Source: a virus (Duplodnaviria > Heunggongvirae > Uroviricota > Caudoviricetes). From it: a stretch of DNA of 46,929 nucleotides. Below the pieces are notes generated by a model. That model saw nothing but the letters and a program-made list of their open reading frames with translations. It did not search any database and was not told the origin of the DNA. Below, piece by piece: positions 1 to 46,929 of this stretch. Position numbers and translations under genes: made by a program. Within the stretch, counting starts at the first letter, position 1. Every line of letters starts with the position of its first letter. Location of the stretch: the IMG/VR virus record IMGVR_UViG_2703718815_000012, positions 1-46,929 of that record; one strand, written 5' to 3'.

Positions 1-459
1 ATGTGTGGACGTTTCTCACAATCAATGACCCGCGATGACTATCTGGCTCTGCTGGCTGATGAATCCGATCGCGATATTCCCTATGACCCTGAACCAATCG
101 GGCGATTCAACGTGGCGCCAGGCACAAAAGTTTTGCTGCTGAGCGAACGTGACGAGCAGCTGCATCTCGATCCGGTGTTCTGGGGTTACGCGCCCGGATG
201 GTGGGATAAAGCCCCATTGATTAACGCACGTGTAGAGACCGCGGCATCCAGCAGAATGTTTAAGCCACTGTGGCAGCATGGCCGGGCGATTTGTTTCGCT
301 GACGGTTGGTTTGAATGGAAAAAGGAAAACGACAAGAAACAGCCCTACTTCATCCATCGTGCCGACGGGCAGCCAATATTTATGGGTCGGAGTTCAAGTA
401 TGATTTTTTATTGTCGTGATGACGAGCGTCAGCGAAATGGTGTAAAGTATTACCGTTAG
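1..459 (+). pseudogene. yedK: yedK 5' fragment (SOS-response-associated peptidase / abasic-site processing protein), disrupted after about codon 128
   Basis: ORF begins MCGRF (catalytic Cys2 of SRAP family) and reads YedK-like to ...GQPIFM (nt ~384), then an unrelated 24-codon tail and stop; full-length YedK is about 220 aa. Confidence 0.7.
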
Positions 460-488
460 TTTGCTCTCAACAGGTTGCTAACAATGAA

Positions 489-514
489 GCCCCTGCTGAG
501 TGATTGGCAGGGGC
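489..514 (-). terminator. stem-loop downstream of acyltransferase gene (possible terminator or junction hairpin)
   Basis: gcccctgc-N10-gcaggggc perfect 8-bp stem ending 10 nt from the stop at 525; only a weak U-tract follows. Confidence 0.3.
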
Positions 515-524
515 CTCTGTATCT

Positions 525-1505
525 CTAATGCTGTGATGAGTTTGTCGATTGTTTTCGGATTGAAAATGGAATGCTCATCAACTTCCTGATCATTTGTTCA
601 GCTGGTAGTTTGACTATCACCACCGTTATCATAATGGTTAGGATGGCGGATGCTAATACTGATAGATACTCATTTATACCATGACCAGCAACTGAATAGA
701 TCTTGCTAACAACGATAACAAAGAAGCCGTGGAGCAAATAAATAGATAAAGATTTTTCTCCAATTATTGAGATTAATCCTTTCTTGCCAGGCATTAAAGA
801 TAACAATGCAATAATAACACTGAATGATGCGATAATTGAGAATATCCGCAGCCCAATACCATCGACTATGCTCACAGATAGATCATTAAAGTTATACACA
901 CCAAACCACAATTTGTAGTTGACGCCGAATGAAAACGTGAATATAACTGACATCAAACCGATGGCTATAGACGCGACCGCAACTGATTTGGATATCTTAA
1001 AGTTCTTAGTACATAAAGCACCTGCCATGAAGAAAGGCATGAATACAGCAGTTCTCAACCAACTAAATATATATTCATTAAATGGTAAAGCTCCAGCTAA
1101 TAACGATACAATGACGGCCCCACAGAACACTTTTAACGTTGACCCAACCAGCCCGCAGATCGCATAGAAAGATGCCAAACTGACCAAAAACCAAAGCAAC
1201 CAATATGGCTTGAGTAATGCGTCACTAGCTGTTATTACGCCTTTGAGGACGAAATATGACGCGTATAGAACCTGAAACACTACATAGAGGAATAATACCT
1301 GAACAGACCTTTCCTTCCATTTGCTCCTATTAAACGTCATTCCCGATAAGAATATGAAGGCAGGCATGTGAAACATAAATATCACCTCCATCAATGATAA
1401 CCCTACCACTGATTCCCACCCTGCCGTAACCTCTACCAAGTGTCCAAGAACAACAAGAAGGATCATGCACCCCTTCATATTGTCTATTTTGTAGTTTCTT
1501 TCCAT
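525..1505 (-). CDS. acyltransferase family 3 integral membrane protein (O-antigen O-acetyltransferase-like; lysogenic conversion candidate)
   Basis: polytopic membrane ORF with N-terminal IDNMKGCMILLVVLGH signature typical of acyltransferase-3; clearly more AT-rich than flanking phage genes; ATG at 1505 preferred over upstream GTG at 1523. Confidence 0.7.
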   Translation of the reverse strand: MERNYKIDNMKGCMILLVVLGHLVEVTAGWESVVGLSLMEVIFMFHMPAFIFLSGMTFNRSKWKERSVQVLFLYVVFQVLYASYFVLKGVITASDALLKPYWLLWFLVSLASFYAICGLVGSTLKVFCGAVIVSLLAGALPFNEYIFSWLRTAVFMPFFMAGALCTKNFKISKSVAVASIAIGLMSVIFTFSFGVNYKLWFGVYNFNDLSVSIVDGIGLRIFSIIASFSVIIALLSLMPGKKGLISIIGEKSLSIYLLHGFFVIVVSKIYSVAGHGINEYLSVLASAILTIMITVVIVKLPAEQMIRKLMSIPFSIRKQSTNSSQH

Positions 1506-1614
1506 TTTTCTGCCAAGATGCACATTTAAAGCTGCAATCTATCACCAGAGGTTGTAGATGTGAAGGTTAAGGTTGTGTGTCGTGAGGTATATCACGGCAC
1601 ACAGCCCAGTAACA

Positions 1615-3753
1615 TCAAATCGCTGTGGTTGTGTATGTTACTTTAGTCCCTGAGGCGGTCCCTGACTTACCTATAGTTGCAAAAGCCTCGTCGCAGGTTG
1701 CTGTGGTATTCCCTGTTAGGTTGATATGAGTTGCTCCGTAACCTCCAGTGATGATGTTGGAAGATGTTTTAACTGTTGCGCTATTGTTTATCACCACTGC
1801 TAAATCCGTCCCTGAACTTAACAGAACTGAATCCCGCAGGACTAATCTCGCGCAATTGTCAAAGTACAACCCCCTGCCAGTTCCCTGAGATACATAGTAA
1901 TTATCAACCACTAGACCAGGGCAAATTGCGGCATATAGAGCGTAGTAGTCGGTAGTAAGCCCAACATACTCAGATGAAGATATACTGCATCTGTCACCAT
2001 AGTAAATAGAATACAAGCAACCGCTCCCTCTGGAGATGTTACCGACGAGCTTGACGGCTATAGAATATGTTGAGTCCACTTCATTTCTTGCAACTGATAT
2101 GCAGACTGGTGCCAGGCATGACTGGAATACATTGTCTGATATGGTCCCACTTTGGCACCCTGAAGCCCTGAGAATGCTTAGTGGATTCTCCTGTGATACA
2201 ACGCCACCAGATGCAGGGGCGGTTGTTCCTCCACATGTATGGAATATATTAGCGTTAAAACTAAACCCATTGGCACCGTTAACTATTACAGGTCTAATTA
2301 TCCCATTAAAAAAGTTTCCATCCAACTTCAGTGTTGTCTGTGTTTGTGAGTAAGGAAGAATGTAAATCCCGTAATACCAGTCGGTAGTATTTCCCCCATA
2401 AATGTTATTATTGACTATACTTAAGCGATCATACCCACCCTTCCAGCTAATTGGTATTCTGCACCTTATAAATGTATTGTTTGATATTTGCGTATTAATG
2501 GTAACATGACTTGTACTGTCATCAGCCAAAATCCCTGAATCACTATCTTCAATGTAATTATTAACTATTCGTATATTTCTGTTGCCAGTATTATGAATGG
2601 AAATCCCACAGTATGCCGAGTTCCTAACCGTGCATCCATCAATCAGGCAGTCATAACCGTATGACCATCCTGCTGTCCCTGCTGCGTCATAGGATATAGG
2701 CAAAATATTTCCTGCGGAATCGCTAGCTTCTGAAGCATTAGGATAACTTGCAACATCGATCTGAAAAGCAGCGCTGTTGGTTCCTTCTGACCAGCAGTTA
2801 ATTACTTTCCAATACTGGCACCCAGCCCCATCCCATAAATGCCAGTGGAGATATTTGCTTCCAACATTAAACAGGGTTATGTGCCTTGCCCTGTTAGCTC
2901 CAATTCCGTTTCCTCGACCAACAGGCCCGCTAACCACTAAATTCATGAAAATGACACGCTCAGTAAATGCGGCATATGATTGGAAGGTCGCAGGCTGAAG
3001 TGCAGAGCCGTTCGTAGTATTGCTATCGTGAAATAAACAGGCTCCCTGCCCATCAACAACCAAATTGCTTCCATATAGCGTGGTATAAGTAGTTCGATAC
3101 GTTTTCCCGGGTGAGAACACGATCTTGCCGCCACCAGCTGCAATGGCAGCCTGGAAGCATGCGTAAATTGCTGCAGTATCATCGGTCCCGTTACCCACAG
3201 TTCCGTTACTATCACCCTTAGCTCCACCAGCAAATTGCGGGTCATCAACACTAAAAACGCGTGAATGCACGGAAAGAATACTGTTGAGCTCCTGCTGAAC
3301 AGTCTTTCCATCAGAGTGTTTGATTAACGATGTGCCTGGCAATGATGAACTATAGAGTTGGCCGCGTAGTGTGGCATCACCTACCGACAGCCATGCACCA
3401 ACACCAATGCCGCCAGTTGAAGTTGGTGTAGAGCCAGGAGGTACCACCTTGCCACTCACAGGAAAAGCCCCACCCCAGCGATAATACTCGCCAGTTGCCT
3501 CAAGGCGAAGAACCTCATTAGGCAAGGTGAGGATCGCACCATCTTCGAAACTATCAATTGTGATGTAGCCGAAGGCGGCCATTGTCTGCTGGGCTAACCA
3601 ACGAAGACCTTCGATTGTATAGTGCTCACCACCAAAGCGGTCTGTGTATTTCAAACCTGATGAGGTTACGAACTCGTCAATTTTCCCGGCATTAAACTTC
3701 AGATCGCGCGGTGATTCGCTTGGTACAGGCTGGTTTGTAGGTTGCGTAGCCAT
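1615..3753 (-). CDS. tailspike / tail fibre with C-terminal right-handed beta-helix (pectate-lyase-like, probable polysaccharide depolymerase)
   Basis: 712-aa ORF at distal end of tail module; Gly/Asn/Ser/Thr-rich repetitive beta-strand sequence with repeated I/V-x-N-N turns. Confidence 0.65.
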   Translation of the reverse strand: MATQPTNQPVPSESPRDLKFNAGKIDEFVTSSGLKYTDRFGGEHYTIEGLRWLAQQTMAAFGYITIDSFEDGAILTLPNEVLRLEATGEYYRWGGAFPVSGKVVPPGSTPTSTGGIGVGAWLSVGDATLRGQLYSSSLPGTSLIKHSDGKTVQQELNSILSVHSRVFSVDDPQFAGGAKGDSNGTVGNGTDDTAAIYACFQAAIAAGGGKIVFSPGKTYRTTYTTLYGSNLVVDGQGACLFHDSNTTNGSALQPATFQSYAAFTERVIFMNLVVSGPVGRGNGIGANRARHITLFNVGSKYLHWHLWDGAGCQYWKVINCWSEGTNSAAFQIDVASYPNASEASDSAGNILPISYDAAGTAGWSYGYDCLIDGCTVRNSAYCGISIHNTGNRNIRIVNNYIEDSDSGILADDSTSHVTINTQISNNTFIRCRIPISWKGGYDRLSIVNNNIYGGNTTDWYYGIYILPYSQTQTTLKLDGNFFNGIIRPVIVNGANGFSFNANIFHTCGGTTAPASGGVVSQENPLSILRASGCQSGTISDNVFQSCLAPVCISVARNEVDSTYSIAVKLVGNISRGSGCLYSIYYGDRCSISSSEYVGLTTDYYALYAAICPGLVVDNYYVSQGTGRGLYFDNCARLVLRDSVLLSSGTDLAVVINNSATVKTSSNIITGGYGATHINLTGNTTATCDEAFATIGKSGTASGTKVTYTTTAI

Positions 3754-3764
3754 ATTGATTCCAT

Positions 3765-3790
3765 AAAAAAACCCGGCGCAGTGGCCGGGT
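3765..3790 (-). terminator. intrinsic terminator-like hairpin between tail-tip gene and tailspike gene
   Basis: minus strand reads cccggc-cactgc-gccggg followed by TTTTTTTAT, about 20 nt after the stop at 3812. Confidence 0.5.
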
Positions 3791-3811
3791 CAGGTTGGTC
3801 GGGGACGGTTC

Positions 3812-6289
3812 TTATTGGTAGATGGCGTCGCTGTACTCCGCGACCGTCAGTGAAACCGTATTATCTGTGTTCGGTTTGATGCTGTTGACCGTCCATAGCT
3901 GACTGTCCAGTTCCTCCACTGTCGCAATGAGATAGCGCGACGGGAGCTGCACAGTGTCTCCGTTCCATATATTGAGCTGAATGTCTGGTAGTGCCGCGGT
4001 GAAGCCGTACTTCGTGTCGCTGCGGGCCGTCGCCGGATAGCGCAGCGTCGGATTACCCAGGCTGTCGGTCACCAGCACGTACATTGAACCGGTAAACGCG
4101 ATCGGCTCGCTTGTATCGAAGTTATTCCCGGCGCGGCCGGTGATGTACCCCTGCTGCTGGTTGCTGTCGTAGATGTCAGGCATCTGAATGACGCTGCCAA
4201 CCTGGATAATGCCGTCTTCGAACACTTTGGCGTTCATCTTCACCCGGGAGTAGATGAGGCGCTTGGTTTCGCGTAATGCGCGCTCACGCGCCTGATACTC
4301 GTTACGGAAGCCGACTATCTCCAACTTATTGGGGTTCTCCGCTTCCTGTTCAACGATAGTGCCGTTCAGCACGCGGTAGTTGATGTACGTCTTATTGTTC
4401 GTGGTTGGGTGAACATAGGACACCTGCACACCGTCGTAGCCGCCAGGAAGAGTGGCCTCGTACGTCATTTTGTACTCGTCCGTCTTCATGTTGGCCCGGT
4501 TGAATACGGCCGCCGGGTAATCAACTTTCTGATCCCTGGTAAAGGTCAGCACGCCGTCATCCCAGTACGCCACCACTGACGCCGCATTGCAGATCGCCTG
4601 CACGCGGTCGCCCAGCGAGTCGTTCTCGTCATCAAACGTGTAGTCGAAATAACCCAGGCGCTCATCAGGCAGGCTTTCAGCAATCGAGTACAGCCCGTAC
4701 AGGTCAATGCTGCTGACCGGCTGCCCACCCATAATCAGCCAGGTGTGTGCTACTGCATCAGCGAACGAACGCGAAGGACGCAGCGTGTAATCCACCGTCT
4801 GCGTGTCCAGGTCGTATGTGATGGTATGACGCGTCACCAGGGCGTTGTATTTGCGGTCACGGCTTCCGAGGGCGTTCTCTGTCGCCCTTACCTTCACGCG
4901 CACCAGCGTATCGGTTGGATGCACTACGTTGGTTCTGACGTTGACCGAGTGGATCTCCTCAACCTTCAGGATAGAAGCATCACTTGAGTTATCTGTGCGC
5001 TGGAAGTTAATGGCGTACTTGCCGAAACCGCCGGTCGGCGTCAGCTTGTCAGTGCGATAAAACACTTCGCTGGATGATTTGTGCGGCGTCCCCTGGTGAT
5101 ACGTGAACGTCTGCTGAGTACCCGGCACCTGGTTGTAGTCATCGTCAATCTTCCAGATCGTGACCTTCCAGTCGGCTGACTTTTTGCCGCCCACTTGCAC
5201 CTGAGTGTGCAGCCACAACTGAGAAGACTCGACCGGCGAGAAGAACGGGCCTACCACGAGCGCTTCGTTATCGTTGAGGATGAATTTCGTCGTGTTGATT
5301 GTCGCCGTTGCCGGCACGTCAGGAGGGCCAATCAGATCCCCCATCGTGAATGTGTACCACCGGACCGGGTTAACAACCGCGCCGTCGTTAGTTTCGACAG
5401 CTGAAATCAGCGTACCGGAGAAATCGACATCCTGCGTGACATTTCCGGTTGGCGTGCTGTAGGTGACGTTAATCGTGAATGTAACCGCATGCGGAAGGAC
5501 GAGGCCCATGAAGTAATCAAACTCAGCCTGCTTGATGATTTTTACTGCAATCTGCCCGCCGGAGTAAGTTCCGCTCACAACCGTATTGGCGGTGGCTGTC
5601 TCGATCGGGAAATTGTCCGATTCGTTTTGGCCAGGCACTTCCTGCCCGTCGACGTCGTCGAACCCGTAGCCTTCGTTGATGGTGGGGATCACTTCGCCAG
5701 GCTGGTAAAACTGAAACTCTGCACCGGCCATGCTTCCGAGGCTGGACTCTGAATAACGCACAGATTCGTAATCGTATTTGCCGATCCCGATGCACATCCA
5801 TTCAGTAACGTATTTCAGGCCGCCATCCGTGTCGCTCTGGCGCACATATTCGAACAAAGATTCCTGAATCAGGTCCGGGAACGAGCGGATTTGCCCGTAA
5901 ATGTCCGGTTTTGCTTTATAGACGCGCGCAGTATTCGTCTGGCCGGTCAGGCTATTGTTTGGCGAGTCAATCGTGTTGCCGCCGGTATTAGCGATCGCCG
6001 GTTTGGGAGCAAGGAACGAGAAGACCGCGCCGACAACTTTGAAAATCGGGCTGAGAATGTCGCCAATGATACCCTTCGGCTGGTCGAATATCTGGATGGT
6101 GTCCAGTTCGCATAGCTCAAACGCCAGTTCATCATCTTCGCTCAGCTTTACGCCATTGCGGACGATCAGCAGGTCGCGGTGGAAAGTAGCGTCATTGGCC
6201 TCCAGCCAGTCATAAAAAAGGGTGCCGTTTGGCACCCTGTAGCGTTCTTTTGGCGTTCCCGGGAAACGCTGGAGTTCAATCAACGCCAT
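3812..6289 (-). CDS. tail tip / host-specificity protein (central fibre, gpJ analogue of T1/GTA-type tails)
   Basis: 825-aa ORF immediately downstream of the tail NlpC/P60 peptidase gene; assignment by size and synteny. Confidence 0.55.
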   Translation of the reverse strand: MALIELQRFPGTPKERYRVPNGTLFYDWLEANDATFHRDLLIVRNGVKLSEDDELAFELCELDTIQIFDQPKGIIGDILSPIFKVVGAVFSFLAPKPAIANTGGNTIDSPNNSLTGQTNTARVYKAKPDIYGQIRSFPDLIQESLFEYVRQSDTDGGLKYVTEWMCIGIGKYDYESVRYSESSLGSMAGAEFQFYQPGEVIPTINEGYGFDDVDGQEVPGQNESDNFPIETATANTVVSGTYSGGQIAVKIIKQAEFDYFMGLVLPHAVTFTINVTYSTPTGNVTQDVDFSGTLISAVETNDGAVVNPVRWYTFTMGDLIGPPDVPATATINTTKFILNDNEALVVGPFFSPVESSQLWLHTQVQVGGKKSADWKVTIWKIDDDYNQVPGTQQTFTYHQGTPHKSSSEVFYRTDKLTPTGGFGKYAINFQRTDNSSDASILKVEEIHSVNVRTNVVHPTDTLVRVKVRATENALGSRDRKYNALVTRHTITYDLDTQTVDYTLRPSRSFADAVAHTWLIMGGQPVSSIDLYGLYSIAESLPDERLGYFDYTFDDENDSLGDRVQAICNAASVVAYWDDGVLTFTRDQKVDYPAAVFNRANMKTDEYKMTYEATLPGGYDGVQVSYVHPTTNNKTYINYRVLNGTIVEQEAENPNKLEIVGFRNEYQARERALRETKRLIYSRVKMNAKVFEDGIIQVGSVIQMPDIYDSNQQQGYITGRAGNNFDTSEPIAFTGSMYVLVTDSLGNPTLRYPATARSDTKYGFTAALPDIQLNIWNGDTVQLPSRYLIATVEELDSQLWTVNSIKPNTDNTVSLTVAEYSDAIYQ

Positions 6290-6668
6290 AAGAAAAATAC
6301 TCCACTTTGGTGAATGCCCGCTGAATAACCAGCAACGAGTCCATGCGCACGCTTCCGTTCTCGCCGCGCGAGTGCAACGCCTGTCGGTTCAGCACCAGGC
6401 CAACGTGTGCCGGTTGCGCGCCGCGGTACCCGACGAATATCCCGCCTTCGATCGGTTTATCGACCTGGCGCCAGAAGACGACGTCACCCTGATAGCAGGT
6501 GAAGAAGTCCTCACCGGCTTCGTAGTCCGGTGTCTGGTGCAGCTCAATGCTGAGGACATGGCGGTAATACAGCACAACCAGCCCCCAGCAATCAGTCTTT
6601 TCGAATGAGCAGGCGCGGTTAGACCACGGCACGCCGATCACCTTGCGAACAAAATCAGAGGTATTCAT
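6276..6668 (-). CDS. tail-associated NlpC/P60-family (C40) cysteine peptidase
   Basis: 130-aa ORF with Cys (TDCWGLV) and His (AHVGLVL) spaced as in the NlpC/P60 fold; ATGA overlap with HNH gene stop. Confidence 0.5.
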   Translation of the reverse strand: MNTSDFVRKVIGVPWSNRACSFEKTDCWGLVVLYYRHVLSIELHQTPDYEAGEDFFTCYQGDVVFWRQVDKPIEGGIFVGYRGAQPAHVGLVLNRQALHSRGENGSVRMDSLLVIQRAFTKVEYFSYGVD

Positions 6669-7129
6669 GTGCCGTGCCTGCCAGTTACATCGCCGCTTCT
6701 CACTTCAGCAATAATTCTCGCCTCACAAGCTGAAGGGAAGTCAGGAAACCAACCAAGATGAGCATTTGCCAATCTTGCGCGCCACTCATTCCTTCTCTTC
6801 AAGAAATCCACGCCAGTAACACCTGATGTATTACCAGTTAGTTTTCTTTTATTCCTTGAGTTGACAGCTCTGCTAACCGCCCTGAGGTTATCTATGTTGT
6901 TATTTTTTTTATCACCATCAATATGATCAATTTCATGACCGTTAGGTATTTCACCATGGTGCATCTCATAAATAATCCTATGAACAAGCAATTGCTTTCC
7001 ATCAACGATTACAGAGAGATATCCTTGTGTAGTAGTCTTGTTTGGTGACCTTCCGTATCTGACACCACTCCTTCTTATATTCCAATATATCTTTCCATCA
7101 TCATATCTGAAAAGTTCATGCCAATTCAT
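6665..7129 (-). CDS. HNH homing endonuclease (NUMOD4-like N-terminus plus HNH_3 motif)
   Basis: HEIDHIDGDKKNNNIDNLR HNH motif, N-terminal DGKIYWNIRRSGV segment; AT-rich gene with AT-rich upstream spacer, sitting between two tail genes. Confidence 0.75.
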   Translation of the reverse strand: MNWHELFRYDDGKIYWNIRRSGVRYGRSPNKTTTQGYLSVIVDGKQLLVHRIIYEMHHGEIPNGHEIDHIDGDKKNNNIDNLRAVSRAVNSRNKRKLTGNTSGVTGVDFLKRRNEWRARLANAHLGWFPDFPSACEARIIAEVRSGDVTGRHGT

Positions 7130-7205
7130 ATAGAGACCTCAACCAGAAGATACAAATATATTTAATAAGAGCAAGAGAAGTAGCGCGCCTAATAATTATA
7201 CCACT

Positions 7206-7676
7206 TCATAAATATTGAAGCCCAGTATATTCGCGGGGGTCGTATAATTTCCCAATATTATTATTGAGTGGATTTGTAACAGAAAGGGTTACCGACGCTG
7301 AGTCTGCGTCGATGTCCACCGTCTTGACGTATAACTGCCACGACTTAATCGGCACCGACACATCGCCGCTGTCGAAGATCTGCCGGGTGGCCGTGATGGC
7401 CGTCAGACGGGCTGCACCCTTCCACTGTTTCATCAGCGCTTTGATATCCGACGACAGCCGCCCTAACTTCACCGTCGCGTCAATCACCGGCGTGCCGCTC
7501 TGCTGACTCTCTTCTATTTCAAAGCGCGCTGGCGTGTATGTCTGGCCGCCAAGTGTCTTCGGGAAGAACTGCTTATCGACCAGGCGGACGTAACCAAAGG
7601 ATGGGTGGTAGAACGTGATGGTGTCGTACAGCCCGCGCGTCGGGCGCTGCTGCTTATAAACTCTGAAGGTAGGCAT
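7206..7676 (-). CDS. tail protein (tail-tip complex component)
   Basis: 156-aa ORF in tail module; start overlaps upstream stop (TAATG). Confidence 0.45.
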   Translation of the reverse strand: MPTFRVYKQQRPTRGLYDTITFYHPSFGYVRLVDKQFFPKTLGGQTYTPARFEIEESQQSGTPVIDATVKLGRLSSDIKALMKQWKGAARLTAITATRQIFDSGDVSVPIKSWQLYVKTVDIDADSASVTLSVTNPLNNNIGKLYDPREYTGLQYL

Positions 7677-8173
7677 TACGGCACTCTCGGTAAAGATTCC
7701 GGGTCGCGCCCGTCAGGATAACCAGTAACAACGATATCTAGCCACGAATCCCACGGCGGCGGAAGTTCAACAATGATGTCGTCAAACTCGTCGTCAGCGT
7801 TGTAGAGGTGGTTTGCGATAACAGTTCCCGTCCAGGTCACCACCCCGCCGTCGATACTGGTTTGCACCGGCATCTGCGTGAAGTGAAGTTCCTGCAACTG
7901 CAGGCCACTGCCGCCAAGGTTGATATTCATCCGGAACCAGTTAAGGCCGCGGTTGAGATAGTTAGGGCTGCGCAGCCACTGCTGAAAAGCGCGCTCCTGG
8001 TCAAGAGTGAAGATCCACGTCAGGGACCATGTCACTTTCAGGTCGTCAGTAAGGCTCTGGAAGATAGCCGGGCCGACCGCTGGCTGATCGGTCTGGAACC
8101 CGGTATCGAGCGTCATGTTTTTGCTGGCCTTCTGCGCCAGCGGCAGCCAGTCGGGATAGTCGATAATTGGCAT
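7676..8173 (-). CDS. tail protein (distal tail / tail-tip complex component)
   Basis: 165-aa ORF following tape measure and small tail protein genes. Confidence 0.45.
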   Translation of the reverse strand: MPIIDYPDWLPLAQKASKNMTLDTGFQTDQPAVGPAIFQSLTDDLKVTWSLTWIFTLDQERAFQQWLRSPNYLNRGLNWFRMNINLGGSGLQLQELHFTQMPVQTSIDGGVVTWTGTVIANHLYNADDEFDDIIVELPPPWDSWLDIVVTGYPDGRDPESLPRVP

Positions 8174-8210: not shown

Positions 8211-8441
8211 TTAATCTATGGCAGTTGGTCGTCTCGGAGCTTCAAAAATTTTAATGTTAAATTCTTGAATAGAGCCGTTACTCTTAAACTCAAGTGTCTC
8301 ACCTGCAGGAATAACACCGGCAATGTAAGTGCCATCTGTTAGCAAAAACTCAAAATTAACAGCCCGGTTAGCTGAGTATTTGACAACCTTCCCGCTTTCA
8401 AGTGGCATGCTTTTTGACTCGCCCGGCAAAATACTATCCAT
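8211..8441 (-). CDS. small tail protein
   Basis: ORF directly after tape measure gene; ATG at 8441 with GAGGG SD preferred over the TTG at 8453 used by the ORF track. Confidence 0.4.
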   Translation of the reverse strand: MDSILPGESKSMPLESGKVVKYSANRAVNFEFLLTDGTYIAGVIPAGETLEFKSNGSIQEFNIKIFEAPRRPTAID

Positions 8442-8449
8442 GTTCCCTC

Positions 8450-11400
8450 TCAATTTTGACCACGTGGAGTTCTTTTGGCATTGAAATTACTTGTTATGCC
8501 CTGAGAAATTGGACCACCATTATTTAGATCAGCAATGATGGCATCCACGGTTATTGTACCATCTCCACTACTCGTAGCCTGAGCATCAAATGTGGCTCCC
8601 GTCATATTCTGAACGTTGATTATGACGTTCACACCTCCGCCAGCATTCATCTCCTTATTGCTGATAACCTTGCCATTGTCGCCCGGTATCATGTACTGCT
8701 TACCGGTACTGGCCTGGTAAATCTCAGGTTTCCCTCGCTCACCGACCTGATAAAGACCTCCTGCATTCACCGGGCCGCCATTGTAACGCATACCGGTTAA
8801 AGCAAGGCCCTGTGCCAGGCCTATCGTTGAAGCAATTCCTGTCATGGCAGGAACTGAGTTACCACCAAAAGAAGCAAGGCTAGCAAAGGCTGCTGCCGGA
8901 GCCCATGCTTTAGCCAGAAATACAGCCTCCGTCGCACTGGCAGCAGTAGCCGCTGCGCCCAATGTCTGCCCTATAATGAAGTTTTTGAGGGCCTCAACAC
9001 CAACCTGGACTAGCGCATTGACCACGCTGTTCAGCATCGTATTCCCGAGTGAACGCATAGCATCCTGCGCTGACATCGTTCCGGTGATCAGCCCGGTTAA
9101 CGCATTGGATGCATTACCTGAAAACGCATCCACCGCGCTTGTCAGCATTTCATAACCAAGACCTTTCTGACTGAGCAATTGCCACTGAGCGGCTGTCATC
9201 TGCTCATTGAACTGGTTTTCCTGCGCAGTCTTTAAGGCAAGGTACTGGGCATCGGTAGCTGCCTTTGCAGCAACGAACTGATCGTAATTTATTTTCCCTT
9301 TTTGGTAACTTTGCTGGAGTATCGCCTGTTCCTGCTGCTGATATTGCTGCAGCAGGGCTAACTTCTGGTTATTTTCATTCACCAGTTGCTGTACCGGGTC
9401 AACTTCTGCTCGGGCAGAAGCTACCGGATTGACTGCGGCCTGGGCGTTAATCTTGGCGAGGTTATTCTGGTGCTCGAGCGCCATTTTCTCCGTGGCAGCG
9501 TTATACTCCTTGAGATCTATTTTCCCAGCGTTCAGTGCGGCCTTCAGATTTTGCATGGATTCGGCGTAGGATTTATTCTCCGCCTGCAAAGGCATTGCCT
9601 TAAGTGCTTCCGTAACCCCTTTGGCTGCCGCTGATGCATCCCATGCTTTTGCTGCATATTCACCGGCCTTTTTAATTTGCTCCTGGGTTGCAGAATTACC
9701 CAGTGACTGCTGAGCACGTAATATGGCCTGCTCTCTGCTTAGCTCCTCCGTTGAATCAGCTGCCAATTCTGACTGCTGCTTCAGATTCGCCAGCTTCTGA
9801 GCAACAGATTCAGCAGAAGACGCTGATTTCTTCCCCTGCCGCTCACTCTCTTGTTGAGATTTTTTTCTGGCTTCTTCTGACTTCTCTAAATCATAATTTT
9901 CAGCAGCCAGCCTGCCAGCTGCAGAGATTTGATTCTGATTGTCAGTGACCTTGGCAGCCTGCATCCTGGCTTTGGCTATCGCCCGCTCTCTCTCGTCCTG
10001 AATTTTAAGTAATTCATTCTGCTCTTCCAGAGTAGCGATAACTTTATCGCCCTCCTTGGTCGCGGGAGATATCTGCAGCGCTTTGTGGTCGAAGCTTTTT
10101 CCGGCCTGATTGGCTCGGTTTATTTCATCAGCCGTCTCCCCAAAGGCTTTCGCTACCGCACCCTGAACTTGCTCAAGAGACCAGGATTTTTCGATGAGTT
10201 GATCATGAACGCCCATCGCCGTAAGCATGTTGTTCGTGAGTGTGCGAGTCGCCTCAGACGCGGTTTCTTCTGTCCGGGATAATTTATCCTTTGCGGCCTC
10301 AAGATCTCGCGTCTTGCGAGCCAGTTCATCAGACACCTCCGCCTGTTGACGGGCGAAATCCGCACCTTGCCCCATAGATTCAGCAACTTCCTGCGCTGCC
10401 GGGGTAAAGTTCTGATATCTGTCTCTCAGCGAGTCAACTTCACTCTGCAGATCTGCTACATCCTCTTTCTGAGCTCGAATAGAATTATTGGCATCTGCAA
10501 TAGCCCCACGCAGCTGCGTGTTCGACATTGCATTCATGGCGGCGTTGAGCTTATCCAGACCATCGGCGAAGGCGATAGCCTCCTCTTTTGCCTGTTGAGC
10601 TTTCTGCCAGAAATAGAAGATCGCTCCGGCAGCAAGCATAGCCGCACCAGCTGGACCCCCTATAAGAGCAAGTGCACCACGGGCCATTCCGATACCAATT
10701 GACGCTGCACGAGCAGCGGTCGCTGCGCGGGCAGATGCTGCAGCCTGGGCAGTTTCAGCCTCGGCAAGAGCAAGAGATGCGGTAGTAGCACGAGTTTTTG
10801 CGGCCACAAGAGCATCCATTGCCAGCATCTCTGCAGCGCTACCTTTTGCCACGTTATATTCAGCCTGGGCCAGCGCGAGAGACGAAAGAGCAGCCTCTTT
10901 ATCAGCCAGAGCCTTACGCTGAGCAGAATTAGCAGCAACCAAAGCTGCTTGTGCCGCCTGACTCTCTGCAACAGCCTGCTGACGGGATGCTGCGATATCA
11001 GCGATTTTCGCTGAGGTAGCCATGGTCAGCGCACCGACATACCGCGCACCCATTACGCCGGCAACAATCGTGAGCGTAGTGCTGAGAACGTCCAGGTTTT
11101 CACTGAGAGAAATGACTGAATCACTGAATATTTTGACGCCAGTTTTTACAGTGGCATTCTCGCCAAAGAACTTCGTGATGTTGTTGTTGGCAATTTCAAG
11201 AGACTGGCTGATCGTGGCAGTAGTTTTAGCGAACTCCTGTCCAATTTTATCGCCCTGAGAAAGCAACCCATTCACGATCACATCAGTGGTTAACTTGCCC
11301 TCTGCAGCCATGTTTCTGAGCGCCCCAATGCTGACATTCATCGAGTCAGCAAGAGCAATCATGAGCCGGTTACCCTGCTCGTTCACAGAGTTAAATTCAT

Positions 11401-25896: not shown

Positions 25897-25972
25897 TGGT
25901 GCTGATTGACGGAGTTGAACCGCCGACATCCTGCTTACAAGGCAGGCGCTCTACCTACTGAGCTAAATCAGC
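25897..25972 (-). tRNA. tRNA-Thr (anticodon UGU)
   Basis: 76-nt cloverleaf on minus strand: acceptor stem GCTGATT/AATCAGC, D-arm AGCTCAGTAGGTAGAGC, anticodon stem CCTGC/GCAGG with loop CUUGUAA, T-arm GGCGG-TTCAACT-CCGTC, encoded CCA. Confidence 0.85.
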
Positions 25973-33044: not shown

Positions 33045-33914
33045 TCAGTCCCTCGCCCAAGGTGGAATTTCAGTCTGGCCATAGTCCTTGCCAGCGAAGT
33101 TCTCAGATACGCGAGACTGATTGCGGGCTGGCTGCTTGATGCCTTTCGGCTCAAACAATCCCTGCCAGCCGTTCGCAATGCTCTGGTTGATGATTTCTTC
33201 AGGCTGATATCCGCTGCACTTGCAACGCTCAAGCAGGTTGATGGCCTGGGTAACCGTCTGCTGAGACTTGATCGGTTTCTTCAGGTCGCGACGATAATCG
33301 ACCCATGACTTCCAGACTGAAACTGACAGCCATTCAGGAAGGTCAACACCAGCCGGATCGAACGAAGCATGTTTGGGGGATTTAGGGGGTTTATTAATAT
33401 TGTCTTTATTGTCTTTTGTAATAGTGTCTTTTGTGTGTCCCCATTTTGGTGACAGGGTTGTCACTGTTTTGGTGACACTTTTTGTCACTACCGTAGGGAC
33501 ATTGTCACTACTATGGTGACAGTCACTACTATGGTGACATTTTGGCGCAGGCTTAGTGCCCGGAATTACCCATTCACTTAGGTTTTTGTTGGGCCCGATC
33601 AGCATGCCGTCGGACACCAAAACATTCATCGCAATGAGTTCGTTTTTGGCAGCGTTAACCTTCTGGCGAGGTAGTCTGGTCAGCTCAGAAAGTTGTGAGT
33701 CTGCTATGCGGTCCATCTTCTTGTTGAACCCATAGGTTTTGCGGCAAACAGCATGAGCTACCTTGGCCTGATTTTTGGTCAGGTTCGCGCCGATAAGCTC
33801 CTCATACAACTCGTTTGCCAGACGGGTGTACCCATCGTCTGTATCGGCCACGCGTTGCTCCTGTATTCCCGAAACTACAGCGGGAAAGTTGAGAATTTCT
33901 GCGGTGTTTGACAT
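33045..33914 (-). CDS. replication initiator (lambda O-like N-terminal domain) containing the origin
   Basis: N-terminal YTRLANELYEELI...QAKVAHAVCRKTYGFNKKMDRIADSQL resembles replication protein O N-domain; iterons inside coding sequence; ATG 33914 with GGGAG SD. Confidence 0.75.
   Translation of the reverse strand: MSNTAEILNFPAVVSGIQEQRVADTDDGYTRLANELYEELIGANLTKNQAKVAHAVCRKTYGFNKKMDRIADSQLSELTRLPRQKVNAAKNELIAMNVLVSDGMLIGPNKNLSEWVIPGTKPAPKCHHSSDCHHSSDNVPTVVTKSVTKTVTTLSPKWGHTKDTITKDNKDNINKPPKSPKHASFDPAGVDLPEWLSVSVWKSWVDYRRDLKKPIKSQQTVTQAINLLERCKCSGYQPEEIINQSIANGWQGLFEPKGIKQPARNQSRVSENFAGKDYGQTEIPPWARD
33441..33545. repeat. replication origin iterons inside initiator gene
   Basis: tandem 18-bp direct repeat gtcactactatggtgaca x2 (33504..33539) plus further GGTGACA/GTCAC copies, flanked at 33375..33440 by an AT-rich tract. 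Confidence 0.65.
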
Positions 33915-34912: not shown

Positions 34913-35617
34913 ATGAAAACATTCGCAGATCGACTCAACGCGGCTATGAGAGCCGCAGGCATATCCCAAGGGCAGCTGGCTGAGAAAGTCGGCATATCTC
35001 AACCTGCAATTCAGAAAATGACATCAGGCAAAACCACAGGCAGCCGTAAGATGGTTGAGCTTGCTCATGCATTGAACGTGCGTCCGGAATGGCTCAGTTC
35101 GGGCATAGGCTCAATGCAGGACGAAGGACGCAAGGACTCCGCTATCCCACCAGAATCGGAATGGGGTAAAGTTGACGCTTGGGATAGCAAAACAGATCTG
35201 CCAGATGACGAGGTCGAAGTGCCATATCTGAAAGATATAGAACTTGCGTGTGGTGATGGTTCCTGCTTGGAAGATGACTATAACGGATTCAAACTTCGTT
35301 TTGCGAAGTCTACCCTTCGTAAGGTGGGAGCCCAGAAAGATAGCGTGCTGTGCTTCCCGGCATCAGGAAATAGCATGGAGCCCATGATCCCGGAAGGGAC
35401 GACGGTCGCCATCAACACGAACGACAAAAAGATCGTTGATGGCAAGGTTTATGCAATAAGCCAGGACGGATGGAAAAGGCTAAAATCCATTTATCGTGTG
35501 AGTCCTACCCGCATCGTGATTCGCAGCTTCAACAGTGAAGAGTACCCAGATGAAGAAGCGGATATCGAGAGCGTAGAGATTATTGGTCGCATGTTCTGGA
35601 CATCTACTATCTGGTAA
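34913..35617 (+). CDS. cI: CI-type repressor (HTH plus LexA-like S24 peptidase domain)
   Basis: N-terminal HTH (ISQGQLAEKVGISQPAIQKM), C-terminal S24 autocleavage domain with Ser in GNSMEP and Lys in WKRLK. Confidence 0.85.
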   Translation: MKTFADRLNAAMRAAGISQGQLAEKVGISQPAIQKMTSGKTTGSRKMVELAHALNVRPEWLSSGIGSMQDEGRKDSAIPPESEWGKVDAWDSKTDLPDDEVEVPYLKDIELACGDGSCLEDDYNGFKLRFAKSTLRKVGAQKDSVLCFPASGNSMEPMIPEGTTVAINTNDKKIVDGKVYAISQDGWKRLKSIYRVSPTRIVIRSFNSEEYPDEEADIESVEIIGRMFWTSTIW

Positions 35618-44236: not shown

Positions 44237-44335
44237 CGGAAGTAAACAGCATCAGCGCATCGCCGTGTGGCGGGTGACATCCCGCCAAATAACGACGATC
44301 AACTGAACATCAACACATTATATGTACATACGACC

Positions 44336-45427
44336 ATGAACATTCAGATCAAAACACTATCTGTCCGAATTAAAGACAAGCACGCAGCCGTTTTGCGGCA
44401 GATGGCCTTTGAGGTCAATCAGATCTTTAATCTGGCAAACGAGATAACCAGCGTAGCATACGGCAACGCTGGCTTTTTTGGCGCGCAAAAACCGCAATGG
44501 CTATCGGCGTTTGATGTTCAGAAACCGCTCCTTAAAGAGCGAAAAGAGCGCGGGTATACCATCCCCAGCCATACCGTACAGGAAATCGCAGCAATTCACG
44601 GCAAGGCACGGAAGCAATTTAAACGCTCTCGCTTACGCTGGCGAGTCAGTGGGGGATCTCGCCGTTCGTTGGGTTGGGTGCCGTTTAAAATAGGCAGCGC
44701 TGTCTGGAAAAATGGCGCGGTGCGGTTCGCTGGCAGGATTTTTAATGTCTGGGATAGCTACGGCTTGGGAGGATTTAAATTCCGTGCTGGAAGCTTTTCA
44801 GAAGACAGCCGTGGACGCTGGTACTTCAATGTTTGCGTAGAGGTCGAAACTGTCCCATCAACGGCCACTTCCGCCGTGGGTATCGATTTAGGGCTGAAAG
44901 ACTACGCCACCCCGTCAGAAGGTGATCCGCTGATTGCCGGTAGATTCTATCGAGATCTGGAGCCTGCATTAGGAAAGGCACAGCGTGCAAACAAAAAAGC
45001 CCGTGTACGCGCCATACACGCCAAAATTAAGAACCGCCGCAAAGATGCCCTGCACAAGTACAGCACGGCGCTGGTTAACAGCCATGCGGCAATATTCGTA
45101 GGCGACGCGAGCAGTAAGAAACTGGTTAAAACCAAAATGGCAAAAAGCATTTTGGACGCTGGCTGGTTCATGCTCAAAACACAACTGGAATATAAAGCGA
45201 TTGCGCGGTCAGTGGTGTTTGAAGTGGTCAACGAAAGTTATTCCACCCAAGCTTGTTCGTGTTGCGGGGCTATCTCCGCCAACAGTCCGAAAGGTAGAGC
45301 AGGCCTGCGAATAAGAGAATGGACTTGTTGTGAGTGCGGAACCACTCATGACCGCGACGTGAACGCCGCAAAGAACATTCTCGCGGCGGGGCATCGCCGT
45401 CTAGCTGTAGGAATCCCCTTCCTTTAG
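44336..45427 (+). CDS. tnpB: TnpB (IS200/IS605 OrfB-type RuvC-like RNA-guided endonuclease)
   Basis: RuvC-I GIDLG, C-terminal zinc finger CSCCG...CCECG, RuvC-III RDVNAAKNI; ATG 44336. Confidence 0.75.
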   Translation: MNIQIKTLSVRIKDKHAAVLRQMAFEVNQIFNLANEITSVAYGNAGFFGAQKPQWLSAFDVQKPLLKERKERGYTIPSHTVQEIAAIHGKARKQFKRSRLRWRVSGGSRRSLGWVPFKIGSAVWKNGAVRFAGRIFNVWDSYGLGGFKFRAGSFSEDSRGRWYFNVCVEVETVPSTATSAVGIDLGLKDYATPSEGDPLIAGRFYRDLEPALGKAQRANKKARVRAIHAKIKNRRKDALHKYSTALVNSHAAIFVGDASSKKLVKTKMAKSILDAGWFMLKTQLEYKAIARSVVFEVVNESYSTQACSCCGAISANSPKGRAGLRIREWTCCECGTTHDRDVNAAKNILAAGHRRLAVGIPFL

Positions 45428-45551: not shown

Positions 45552-45767
45552 ATGAATGACAGCATCCTGGTTACAAGCGAAATCCTTGCGCGCTACAAAA
45601 TATCGCGCAGCACGCTCTATTTCTGGAGCACTCCCGCACGTATGCCATCCAGCTTTTCATGCCCATTCCCGAAACCAACCATCCCCGGAAATCCGAAGCG
45701 CTGGCGTGAGTCAGAAATCAAGTCATGGGAAGACAAGGTCAACTTTGCTAAAGGGGATACCCAATAA
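45552..45767 (+). CDS. AlpA-family excisionase / transcriptional regulator
   Basis: ATG 45552; ILARYKISRSTLYFW...FPKP...PKRWRESEIKSW resembles AlpA/Xis HTH family; converges on integrase. Confidence 0.6.
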   Translation: MNDSILVTSEILARYKISRSTLYFWSTPARMPSSFSCPFPKPTIPGNPKRWRESEIKSWEDKVNFAKGDTQ

Positions 45768-46929
45768 TCTCCTGCAAATGCTTCTGCCAGATATCCAGCC
45801 ATTCATGCTGATCGTCCATATAGTCATGAAGGTTGTATCTGGCCATAACCCCGCCCATCTGATGTCCGAGCAACTTTTCTATAACGTGTGGTGGAGCGCC
45901 AAGCTCGGACAGGCGCGTGGCCACCGTTCTCCGCAAATCATGTAATGACCACTCCTTCATTCCGTTCTTACGCACTACCTGCATTGAGTACGTCGAGACA
46001 AGCGTCTGCCCAGGTGGGACATCTTCTTTATCCCGGAACTGTGCTGGAGTCAGAACGTGCTTAGTGATTGATCCGCGTTGATGCTCTTGCAGAAGCCTGA
46101 CCGCAGTATCCGGCAACGCACGACGAATAGTTTTACCGGTCTTATAATCCTCTGCCGGCACAGTCCATGACCTTTCTTTGAAATCGAACCACTCCCATCT
46201 CGACTTTCTTATTTCTGCGGCGCGGCATCCGGTTAGAATCATGAACCTGATTACCAGTTGTTGAGAGGGAGGCAGAGAGAAAAGAGTATCCCACACCTGC
46301 TTTATCTCACTATCTGAAAGCCGCCTCTCCTTCATCTTCGCTGCTATACCGACATCCGATTTTCGTAACGACTCCAGTGGATTGGTTTTGATTACTCCCC
46401 TGTTGTGGCAGAACCGGAAAGCACGCTTGGTCAGAGACAGCATCTCACCTGATATGACACTCCTCCCCATTGCATCGAAAACCTCAAGCCAGTTCGCCTT
46501 CACTGTCTGGTCCACAATAGCCTTCCCTAGCCGCGGGCTAATGTGCTTTTTGAAGCTTTTACCGTTCGCATCAATTTTAATGAGCCCCTCCGGGATACAG
46601 TAATGCTTCACCCAGTACTCATAGGCCTCATCGACTGTCAGCGCTTCTATTCTTTCAGCCTTCTCCACCAGCACTTTCTGCCGGGGATCATACCCCTCGC
46701 TCAACCACGCTCTGAACTGCTGTCTTCTGTCTCTCGCCTGAGAGAGTGAAATAGTTGGATAGTCACCAATGCTTAACTGCACAGGCTTGCCCTGCCAGCG
46801 ATACCGATAGAAGAATGTGATAGAACCGGTTATGCTTAGACGCACATTCAGTCCGTTTGAATCAGAGAGAACCTCAACCTTCTCCCTGCGCTTTCCGAGC
46901 GACTTTCGTAACTTAGTATCTGTGAGCAC
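45748..46929 (-). CDS. int: tyrosine integrase (P4-type); 5' end at or just beyond window edge
   Basis: N-terminal LTDTKLRK...YRYRWQGKPVQLSIGDYP arm-type domain and C-terminal catalytic region HDLRRT...LLGH...Y; ORF runs to the last base of the window. Confidence 0.85.
   Translation of the reverse strand: MLTDTKLRKSLGKRREKVEVLSDSNGLNVRLSITGSITFFYRYRWQGKPVQLSIGDYPTISLSQARDRRQQFRAWLSEGYDPRQKVLVEKAERIEALTVDEAYEYWVKHYCIPEGLIKIDANGKSFKKHISPRLGKAIVDQTVKANWLEVFDAMGRSVISGEMLSLTKRAFRFCHNRGVIKTNPLESLRKSDVGIAAKMKERRLSDSEIKQVWDTLFSLPPSQQLVIRFMILTGCRAAEIRKSRWEWFDFKERSWTVPAEDYKTGKTIRRALPDTAVRLLQEHQRGSITKHVLTPAQFRDKEDVPPGQTLVSTYSMQVVRKNGMKEWSLHDLRRTVATRLSELGAPPHVIEKLLGHQMGGVMARYNLHDYMDDQHEWLDIWQKHLQEIIGYPL

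Follow-up and report, generated by a model that had tools for sequence, protein, structure and literature searches.

Why does a temperate phage encode a membrane-bound acyltransferase directly next to its tailspike? The question is raised by the 46,929 nucleotides (nt) of the IMG/VR record IMGVR_UViG_2703718815_000012, hereafter the window, which correspond approximately to one complete temperate siphovirus prophage of Escherichia coli. The initial annotation had proposed that an AT-rich acyltransferase-3 (AT3) membrane protein is encoded beside a β-helix tailspike, and that the pairing marks a serotype-converting prophage, whose lysogen modifies the polysaccharide that the tailspike recognises. 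Both proteins have been confirmed, and comparison supports their reading as a module of the serotype-conversion type: the element is temperate, the AT3 gene is located between the tailspike gene and the prophage end, it has putative expression signals of its own, and the two genes are co-inherited across unrelated phage backbones. By comparison, we give a probability of approximately 0.65 to the reading that the prophage-expressed AT3 acylates the polysaccharide bound by the neighbouring tailspike, most likely the O100 O-antigen, and thereby blocks adsorption.

The gene of the acyltransferase is indeed AT-rich, with a GC content of 39.1%, compared with 52.3% for the window. Its longest open reading frame (ORF; 525-1523, minus strand) has 332 codons; we have placed the start at the ATG at position 1505, which gives a protein of 326 residues (MERNYK...), because a start of the form MER(N/D)Y is common to every close homologue. 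The RefSeq model of the gene (942 nt, 525-1466) begins 13 codons downstream of this homologue-conserved start, i.e. downstream of residue K11, and therefore lacks the lysine of the K-X10-H motif that is described below. The protein matches the Pfam family Acyl_transf_3 (E 2.1e-19; 70.2 bits, against a cut-off of 31) over the full length of the model, with residues 10-303 of the 332-residue ORF aligned to model positions 1-324 of 326, and it also matches PHROG 3333, “O-acetyltransferase” (E 1.9e-7). Hydropathy segments point to approximately 10 membrane helices, and the AlphaFold2 model (predicted local distance difference test, pLDDT, 93.3; predicted template-modelling score, pTM, 0.90) is all-helical, with 10 long helices in addition to short ones. 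No SGNH domain is fused to AT3 in the Pfam match; this is therefore an AT3-only enzyme, as are OacA, Lag-1 and WbaK (PMC9558356). The identity of a peptidoglycan O-acetylase has been rejected for this SGNH-free protein, since the peptidoglycan enzymes of the family are AT3-SGNH fusions.

Across 46 homologues of AT3 the invariant residues are R3, D8, H22, H46, P48, G55, R151 and H259. Among them, H22 closes a K11-X10-H22 motif and is also invariant in the unrelated AT3 proteins of the sister prophages that are discussed below; a motif of the form R/K-X10-H, located at the first transmembrane helix (TM1), is essential in OafA/OafB (PMC9558356). The first cytoplasmic loop, NRSKWKERSVQ, holds no strict RXXR, the motif of this loop that is essential in OacA; its residue R66 is invariant within the clade and, according to a low-confidence profile alignment, is located within two residues of the KRARR motif of Oac from the Shigella phage Sf6. 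Presumably, AT3 transfers an acyl group to an extracytoplasmic glycan.

The AT3 clade of the Escherichia and Erwinia prophages (at least 44% identity) is small and separate from the COG3594 group, and a scan of species-representative genomes has returned one close relative only, in Erwinia mediterraneensis. A tblastn search of 50,697 phage records (E <= 1e-3) has matched no Oac-bearing phage; its only hits are distant relatives, at approximately 30% identity, in Acinetobacter, Listeria, Staphylococcus and Enterococcus phage records. The closest named group is that of the COG3594/NolL-type “fucose 4-O-acetylase-like” proteins (25-32% identity over nearly the full length), which have the same AT3-only architecture and the same invariant histidine, arginine and proline positions; the substrate of NolL is the Nod-factor fucose in rhizobia (PMC9558356), whereas for the relatives of the window protein the name is an annotation label. 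The AT3 sequence has no match among solved structures even at E <= 1, and the Foldseek comparison of its model with PDB and BFVD has given only meaningless matches to transporters and G-protein-coupled receptors (probability <0.35).

The tailspike gene is co-directional with the AT3 gene, at a distance of 109 nt, and its product has been recognised as a β-helix tailspike by Pfam, AlphaFold2 and Foldseek, in agreement with the initial annotation. Residues 1-160, which form an N-terminal adaptor, align with residues 1-158 of a tail protein of solved structure, 9occ gp13 (E 1e-52), and the first approximately 250 residues match many PHROG families of tail fibres and tail spikes. The remainder of the protein is the putative receptor-binding and enzymatic domain: the AlphaFold2 model of residues 151-712 (monomer, pLDDT 88.5) is a right-handed parallel β-helix, which Foldseek matches at probability 1.0 with the tailspikes of Sf6, HK620 and CBA120, and also with AlgE epimerases. 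The likeness is at the level of the fold only (template-modelling scores of 0.3-0.46, 10-15% identity), so that the cleavage chemistry cannot be read off from it; invariant acidic residues are present in the homologue comparison, from which no catalytic assignment is possible. Homologues of the β-helix domain form only 13 clusters in a database of 5.8 billion proteins, on many different N-termini, and those at 44-78% identity are joined to N-termini of the T7, SU10, Phapecoctavirus, siphovirus and other types; as far as these alignments can tell, the domain is swapped modularly between phage types.

In order to delimit the exchanged region, the window has been compared at the nucleotide level with five sister prophages (loci L017-L020 and L022). 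On the left, positions 1-385, which belong to a truncated SRAP gene, are conserved in L017, L018 and L008, the loci whose fetched stretch reaches SRAP; on the right, the homology of the sister backbones resumes from positions 3474-3661 and continues through the tailspike adaptor and the gene of the tail tip protein TipJ at 84-90% identity, and the homology with the Enterobacter phage CobraSix resumes at the same positions, 3474-3661. Between SRAP and the adaptor, the nucleotide comparison finds nothing common to the window and the sister prophages. The variable block, as delimited by these alignments, would thus consist of the β-helix domain and AT3, from approximately 387 to approximately 3470.

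The same two components recur together on several other backbones. Relative to the window, the tailspike and AT3 are 89% and 77% identical, respectively, in L011, and 91% (over the C-terminal 328 residues) and 71% in L012, both of which are short contigs; 77% and 79% in L021, an element with DNA polymerase A and a T7-type terminase, where holin and lysozyme genes follow, and whose backbone has only partial similarity to the Escherichia phage vB_EcoM-606R2 and two sister records; 29% and 48% in L008, a lambda-like siphovirus at the same yciB site; and 28% and 47% in L004-L007, P22-like prophages of E. albertii. Between L008 and L004 the β-helix domains are 75% and the AT3 proteins 83% identical, while the adaptors are unrelated (Tail_spike_N as opposed to a P22 head-binding domain). 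Wherever a relative of AT3 has a receptor-binding gene in the retrieved context, AT3 comes after that gene, and a more distant IMG/VR relative (32% identity) is encoded in a P2-like baseplate module, after the genes of a tail fibre and of the chaperone of that fibre. The sole close relative that has been seen without an adjoining receptor-binding gene is Erwinia mediterraneensis P0006 (44% identity), of which one copy (L009) adjoins a prophage integrase and another (L010) is located among host genes. A chance adjacency of tailspike and AT3 has been rejected, as the pairing recurs in every temperate relative examined. The comparison of the window with L012 has further revealed a tract of 99-100% identity that covers the 3' end of the tailspike gene, the intergenic region and the 5' end of the AT3 gene, outside which the identity is approximately 70% in both directions; the junction of the two genes thus behaves as one unit in recombination. 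Among these close relatives (L011 and L012), AT3 diverges faster than the tailspike (71-77% versus 89-91% identity). Taken together, the alignments support the view that the β-helix domain and AT3 travel as a pair across different phage backbones and morphotypes.

The sister prophages carry other pairs at the same place: in L017, a GDSL esterase receptor-binding protein (3564-6146) with an AT3 (2442-3527); in L018, a GDPD phosphodiesterase receptor-binding protein (4857-6092) with an AT3 (3043-4080); in L020, a “head-binding” spike with an AT3; and in L019, another spike with a GNAT acetyltransferase and a polysaccharide deacetylase (locus coordinates 4013-6085, 3012-3944 and 1141-2106). The AT3 proteins of L017, L018 and L020 are each just 19-22% identical to that of the window, i.e. 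the receptor-binding protein has changed together with AT3 in three of the four sampled sister prophages. An esterase-type tail protein beside an acyltransferase, as in L017, is paradoxical if both act on one acyl group. The same locus, from E. coli XJ5.2, carries qnrS1 and fragments of IS3 and Tn3 in its tail module, beside an NlpC/P60 gene (9385-10041), which places a quinolone-resistance gene within a prophage.

Between the two genes of the window, and after the second, are located signals that would allow AT3 to be transcribed separately. A hairpin without a U-tract follows the tailspike stop codon; 4 of its 14 pairs are kept through compensatory changes among three diverged copies, and it probably serves to end the late transcript or to insulate the AT3 promoter that follows. 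This promoter is a sigma-70-like candidate with an extended -10 element, whose hexamers and TG are invariant in four copies of the cassette, with a variable spacer, while the flanking coding DNA is 66-87% identical. The intergenic region and the 5' end of AT3 form the best conserved part of the cassette (84-87%, versus 60-82% for the coding flanks), and sequences that resemble an extended -10 element, TGCTATTAT or TGCTATTGT, have been read by eye at a similar distance to the ATG in L008, L004 and Erwinia, whose cassettes have diverged. The AT3 stop codon is followed immediately by a terminator-like hairpin, which a simple terminator scan has missed because its loop is 10 nt long. The apparent order of terminator, promoter, gene and terminator follows the classical plan of accessory genes in phages, and AT3 is predicted to be an independent transcription unit that could be expressed in the lysogen.

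The host background points to a polysaccharide that the pair may share. The left 4 kb of the window is present, at 98.6-99% identity, in 4 of 5426 complete E. coli genomes, and a sensitive blastn search has found the cassette in no other of them; all four belong to serogroup O100, with an O100 cluster at 100% identity, a serogroup with a share of 39/5426 in the same set. In strain 53, accession NZ_CP048359, the cluster has wzx/wzy genes of the O100 family together with rfbBDAC and a CDP-glycerol glycerophosphotransferase, and wca genes adjoin it. A search of the complete E. coli genomes for the diverged cassette of L008, as an independent link to a serogroup, has given no match. The serogroup of this one host lineage makes the O100 O-antigen the most likely receptor of the tailspike. 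It is a glycerol-1-phosphate-containing O-polysaccharide, according to the title of Shashkov et al. 2016, cited in PMC7685785. Strain NCTC9100 carries the O100 cluster without the cassette; should it be the source of the published structure, an acyl group added by the phage would have gone unnoticed.

The arrangement resembles that of phage Sf6 (tailspike gene 14, oac gene 15, encoding OacA), which is also temperate and in which a β-helix tailspike of similar fold (Foldseek probability 1.0) is followed by an AT3-only O-acetylase of approximately 330 residues near the prophage end. The promoter and terminator of oac are annotated in the Sf6 record, the signals of the window AT3 being known from sequence only. 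The differences are also clear: Sf6 is a P22-like podovirus, while the window encodes a siphovirus whose tail tip is of the TipJ family; the gene order in the Sf6 record is tailspike, oac, int, with oac convergent with the tailspike gene and beside int, while AT3 is co-directional and located at the prophage end opposite int; the host polysaccharide of Sf6 is of the S. flexneri Y type, that of the window host O100; and the two enzymes share the Pfam family only. As there is no significant similarity between them, the window AT3 would be Oac-like in role and is not an orthologue of Oac.

Other conversion systems are comparable. The gtrABC genes of P22 and the conversion genes of epsilon15 adjoin the tailspike gene. 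Together with the O-acetyltransferase of the E. coli O157 phage phiV10, which is a precedent for a receptor-modifying conversion gene (PMC9558356), they are lysogenic conversion genes beside the tailspike of a temperate phage, as in the window, although their enzymes are an Oac-type AT3, glucosyltransferases and polymerase inhibitors. The consequence of such modification has been characterised in two cases: acetylation by Oac blocks the endorhamnosidase tailspike of Sf6 itself (PMC9558356), and O-antigen acetylation by OafB of the Salmonella prophage BTP1 shields the lysogen from the tailspike of BTP1 itself (PMC4413052, PMC9558356). In the GtrC/OafB system of BTP1, as in the window, the AT3 enzyme is encoded by the prophage; OafB is an AT3-SGNH fusion, whereas the window AT3 is SGNH-free, and BTP1 is P22-like.

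In the mechanism that we propose, positions ~387 to ~3470 would constitute a two-gene cassette that binds and masks a receptor in a temperate siphovirus. The β-helix of the tailspike would bind, and probably cleave, a serogroup-specific surface polysaccharide of the host, the O100 O-antigen being the likeliest; the lysogen would transcribe AT3 from its own promoter; and the 10-helix enzyme would, at the inner membrane, acylate this very polysaccharide on the periplasmic face while it is being assembled on the lipid carrier, the group being presumably an acetyl from cytoplasmic acetyl-CoA. The modified polymer would then be no substrate for the tailspike of the phage itself or for related tailspikes of other phages, so that superinfection of the lysogen would fail at adsorption and released virions would not be wasted on sister cells. 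Four parts of this scheme are inferred: the donor of the acyl group, the sugar that accepts it, which polymer is the receptor, and the exclusion phenotype.

The same coupling could concern a different polymer, namely a capsular or other extracellular polysaccharide (K antigen, O-antigen capsule or colanic acid) that is both bound by the tailspike and acylated by AT3, which we consider an unlikely variant. Prophage acetyltransferases associated with the capsule type have been reported in Klebsiella (PMC13123978). Tailspikes of this β-helix fold also act on capsules, alginate epimerases and lyases are among the Foldseek matches, and nothing in either protein distinguishes O-antigen from capsule. 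Colanic acid, however, is common to most E. coli. The β-helix of the window is very rare, with its few clusters and its restriction to O100 genomes, which suits a rare serogroup-specific target better than a shared polymer of this kind.

Several observations weigh against a masking function that is directed at the O100 O-antigen. With regard to the enzyme, the similarity of AT3 to Oac of Sf6 is not significant beyond membership of the Pfam family (BLASTP E 0.024; hhalign probability <1%), the nearest named relatives carry only the generic “fucose 4-O-acetylase-like” label, and AT3 matches no NCBIfam equivalog and no PADLOC model (the tailspike has no match in NCBIfam and PADLOC either); with a kinship to Oac at the family level only, homology names no substrate. 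With regard to expression, promoter-like matches in the region are no commoner than in shuffled sequence (8 versus 8.1), so that the promoter is supported by conservation only. With regard to the receptor, the four O100 genomes resemble a single clone (they agree in size and in integration site, with cassettes 99.9% identical), and the association with O100 therefore amounts to approximately one lineage, i.e. to one observation. With regard to the pairing, L022 has a β-helix that is 64% identical (6001-8148) next to an AT3 from an unrelated clade (23% identity, 8278-9309), which means that the pair is not absolutely fixed and that related domains can take different modifiers; in addition, physical linkage by itself makes adjacent genes move together, and accessory genes have a general hot spot where the late operon ends.

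The β-helix domain also occurs in four phages that have no AT3 beside the spike and that we call lytic-type, a term inferred from gene content with no sign of lysogeny: the Phapecoctavirus iGC_PHA_EC001 (57% identity), a T7-like phage seen in two samples (59%), another T7-like phage (44%) and a siphovirus with DNA polymerase A and SNF2 (58%). Their lack of AT3 fits, as weak evidence from gene content, the prediction for a function that is expressed in lysogeny; it is not discriminating, because the same would be expected of any lysogeny-expressed accessory gene.

A second alternative is that AT3 has no relation to the receptor of the tailspike, and acylates enterobacterial common antigen, osmoregulated periplasmic glucans or peptidoglycan for the benefit of the host, for example in immune evasion. 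The position of AT3 beside the tailspike would then reflect nothing more than an insertion hot spot at the end of the late operon, and it is true that umuDC-like genes, SRAP and even qnrS1 gather in the same region of the sister prophages, and that AT3 proteins have many substrates (PMC9558356), homology yielding none here. We nevertheless hold this alternative to be slightly less probable still than that of a capsule: the same AT3 clade follows the same β-helix in different backbones, where what is located downstream varies between holin (L021), SRAP (L008) and host genes (L004); a change of AT3 accompanies the change of receptor-binding protein in most of the sampled sisters, as described above; and the AT3-only architecture speaks against peptidoglycan in particular. 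Lastly, that the acyl group is needed for recognition, the phage making or maintaining its own receptor or marking cells, is very improbable: some receptor-binding proteins do need an O-acetylated O-antigen (G7C gp63.1, as cited in PMC13123978) and L017 pairs an esterase-type protein with AT3, but a lysogen gains nothing by attracting the phage that it already carries, the tailspike of the cassette is of the β-helix depolymerase type and not an esterase, and the characterised cases of this arrangement, Sf6 and BTP1, are all exclusionary (PMC9558356).

The features of the cassette and of the prophage are collected in the following table.

Table 1. Features of the receptor-binding and receptor-modifying region and of the prophage that carries it, in window coordinates.
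Feature	Position	Strand	Description
Truncated SRAP gene (YedK-like) of the prophage	1..432	+	Pfam SRAP, NCBIfam PRK09951; conserved left flank of the variable cassette
Terminator-like hairpin, GC-rich	486..517	-	Directly 3' of the AT3 stop; -22.9 kcal/mol, 11-bp stem, then UUCAUUGUU
AT3-only membrane O-acyltransferase, 326 residues	525..1505	-	Pfam PF01757; predicted receptor-modifying enzyme
Putative sigma-70-like promoter, extended -10	1536..1564	-	Upstream of AT3; TTCACA, 17 nt, TG-A-TAGATT; promoter scan
Conserved hairpin	1571..1607	-	Just 3' of the tailspike stop; -19.8 kcal/mol; without U-tract
Tailspike, 712 residues	1615..3753	-	Pfam Tail_spike_N E 9e-15, Beta_helix E 5e-9
Tailspike receptor-binding/enzymatic domain (residues ~161-712)	1615..3273	-	Right-handed parallel β-helix; GC 44.4%; variable part of the cassette
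Tailspike N-terminal adaptor (residues ~1-160)	3274..3753	-	Tail_spike_N; 9occ gp13; GC 50.2%; conserved backbone
TipJ-family tail tip protein	3812..6289	-	NCBIfam NF040662 E 5e-148; PHROG 469; conserved right flank
CI/LexA-like repressor	34913..35617	+	Pfam HTH_3 and Peptidase_S24
Tyrosine integrase	45748..46929	-	Pfam Phage_integrase and Arm-DNA-bind_3; adjoins yciA in strain 53

The window element is temperate: it has an integrase, a CI-like repressor, a full set of structural genes (among them those for tape measure, major tail protein, capsid, portal, large terminase and spanin) and an attachment (att) core, in addition to O/P-like replication genes and the recombination gene bet. Its integration site is the 3' end of yciB, and in the four complete E. 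coli genomes that hold its left 4 kb it is flanked by yciB and yciA. A search for exact repeats, both inside the window and across the flanks of the prophage, has found no att site (the longest common word is 12 nt, at chance level); the alignment of both junctions to the empty yciB-yciA site of K-12 has assigned the core, CAGGAAGA, to the yciB 3' end. The left boundary of the prophage therefore lies approximately 270 nt outside position 1, which makes the SRAP fragment part of the prophage. From left to right, the element reads attL, SRAP' (truncated), AT3, tailspike, TipJ, ..., int, attR, and only the truncated SRAP gene and the approximately 270 nt separate AT3 from attL.

The SRAP fragment covers positions 1-131 of 214 of the Pfam model and 1-141 of 222 of PRK09951, and is labelled in RefSeq as a pseudogene without its C-terminus; by blastn, its homology to the intact copies of L008, L017 and L018 stops at nt 385/386. 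In the sister prophages, umuD/umuC-like genes are located between the intact SRAP gene and the acyltransferase; these are missing from the window, and have therefore been removed by the exchange of the cassette or by a deletion. On the other flank, the TipJ gene (GC 55%) keeps its 84-90% nucleotide identity in sister prophages with other receptor-binding proteins.

Some further elements of the prophage are mentioned here in their own right. An HNH endonuclease gene (Pfam HNH_3; 6665-7129, minus strand) is located in a 549-nt insertion between tail genes, where the GC content drops to approximately 36%; the insertion is present neither in the sister prophages nor in strain 53, and an HNH gene occurs at the tailspike/TipJ junction in strain 23CRST004 and at yet another junction in L019, such that these look like homing-type mobile genes that move among tail-gene junctions. 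A gene for an RNA-guided nuclease of the TnpB/IS605 OrfB type (44267-45427, plus strand) is located just inside the integrase end and is also annotated in strain 53. Three copies of the 18-nt palindromic iteron GTCACTACTATGGTGACA, which probably form the phage origin, occur at 33460-33539 within the lambda O-like replication initiator gene, and the prophage carries a tRNA-Thr(TGT) gene (25897-25972, minus strand).

The arrangement and the proposed function are already known, being those of the tailspike-oac type of Sf6, and the principle has been known since Sf6, P22 and epsilon15; to a specialist the result would be no surprise, though useful for host-range prediction and serotyping. What is new, as judged from the alignments, is a small AT3 clade that is unrelated to Oac beyond the family level, and explicit evidence for a β-helix domain and an AT3 that move as a block between phage morphotypes; the siphovirus element at yciB and the O100 background are new as well. 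A more far-reaching proposal, which we offer tentatively as a minor but real possibility, is that the two form a selected mobile unit, a key plus a lock-changer, which would be transferred whole between temperate backbones of siphovirus, P22-like and other types, the lytic phages taking the key only; that the Oac-unrelated AT3 clade of Escherichia and Erwinia prophages may make an O-acylated O100 variant that both serotyping and the published structure have missed; and that the faster divergence of AT3 would reflect an arms race with the phages that share the β-helix domain.

If the proposed function is true, some O100 E. coli would bear a phage-made variant of the O-antigen that is invisible to genotype-based serotyping and that would alter their susceptibility to any phage that uses this domain in its tailspike, T7-like phages and a Phapecoctavirus among them, with relevance to the prediction of host range in phage therapy, to O-antigen vaccines and to diagnostics. 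Within this prophage lineage, the receptor-binding module and the polysaccharide-modifying gene are usually exchanged together, and this joint exchange may offer a simple genomic criterion by which cognate receptor-masking enzymes can be found.

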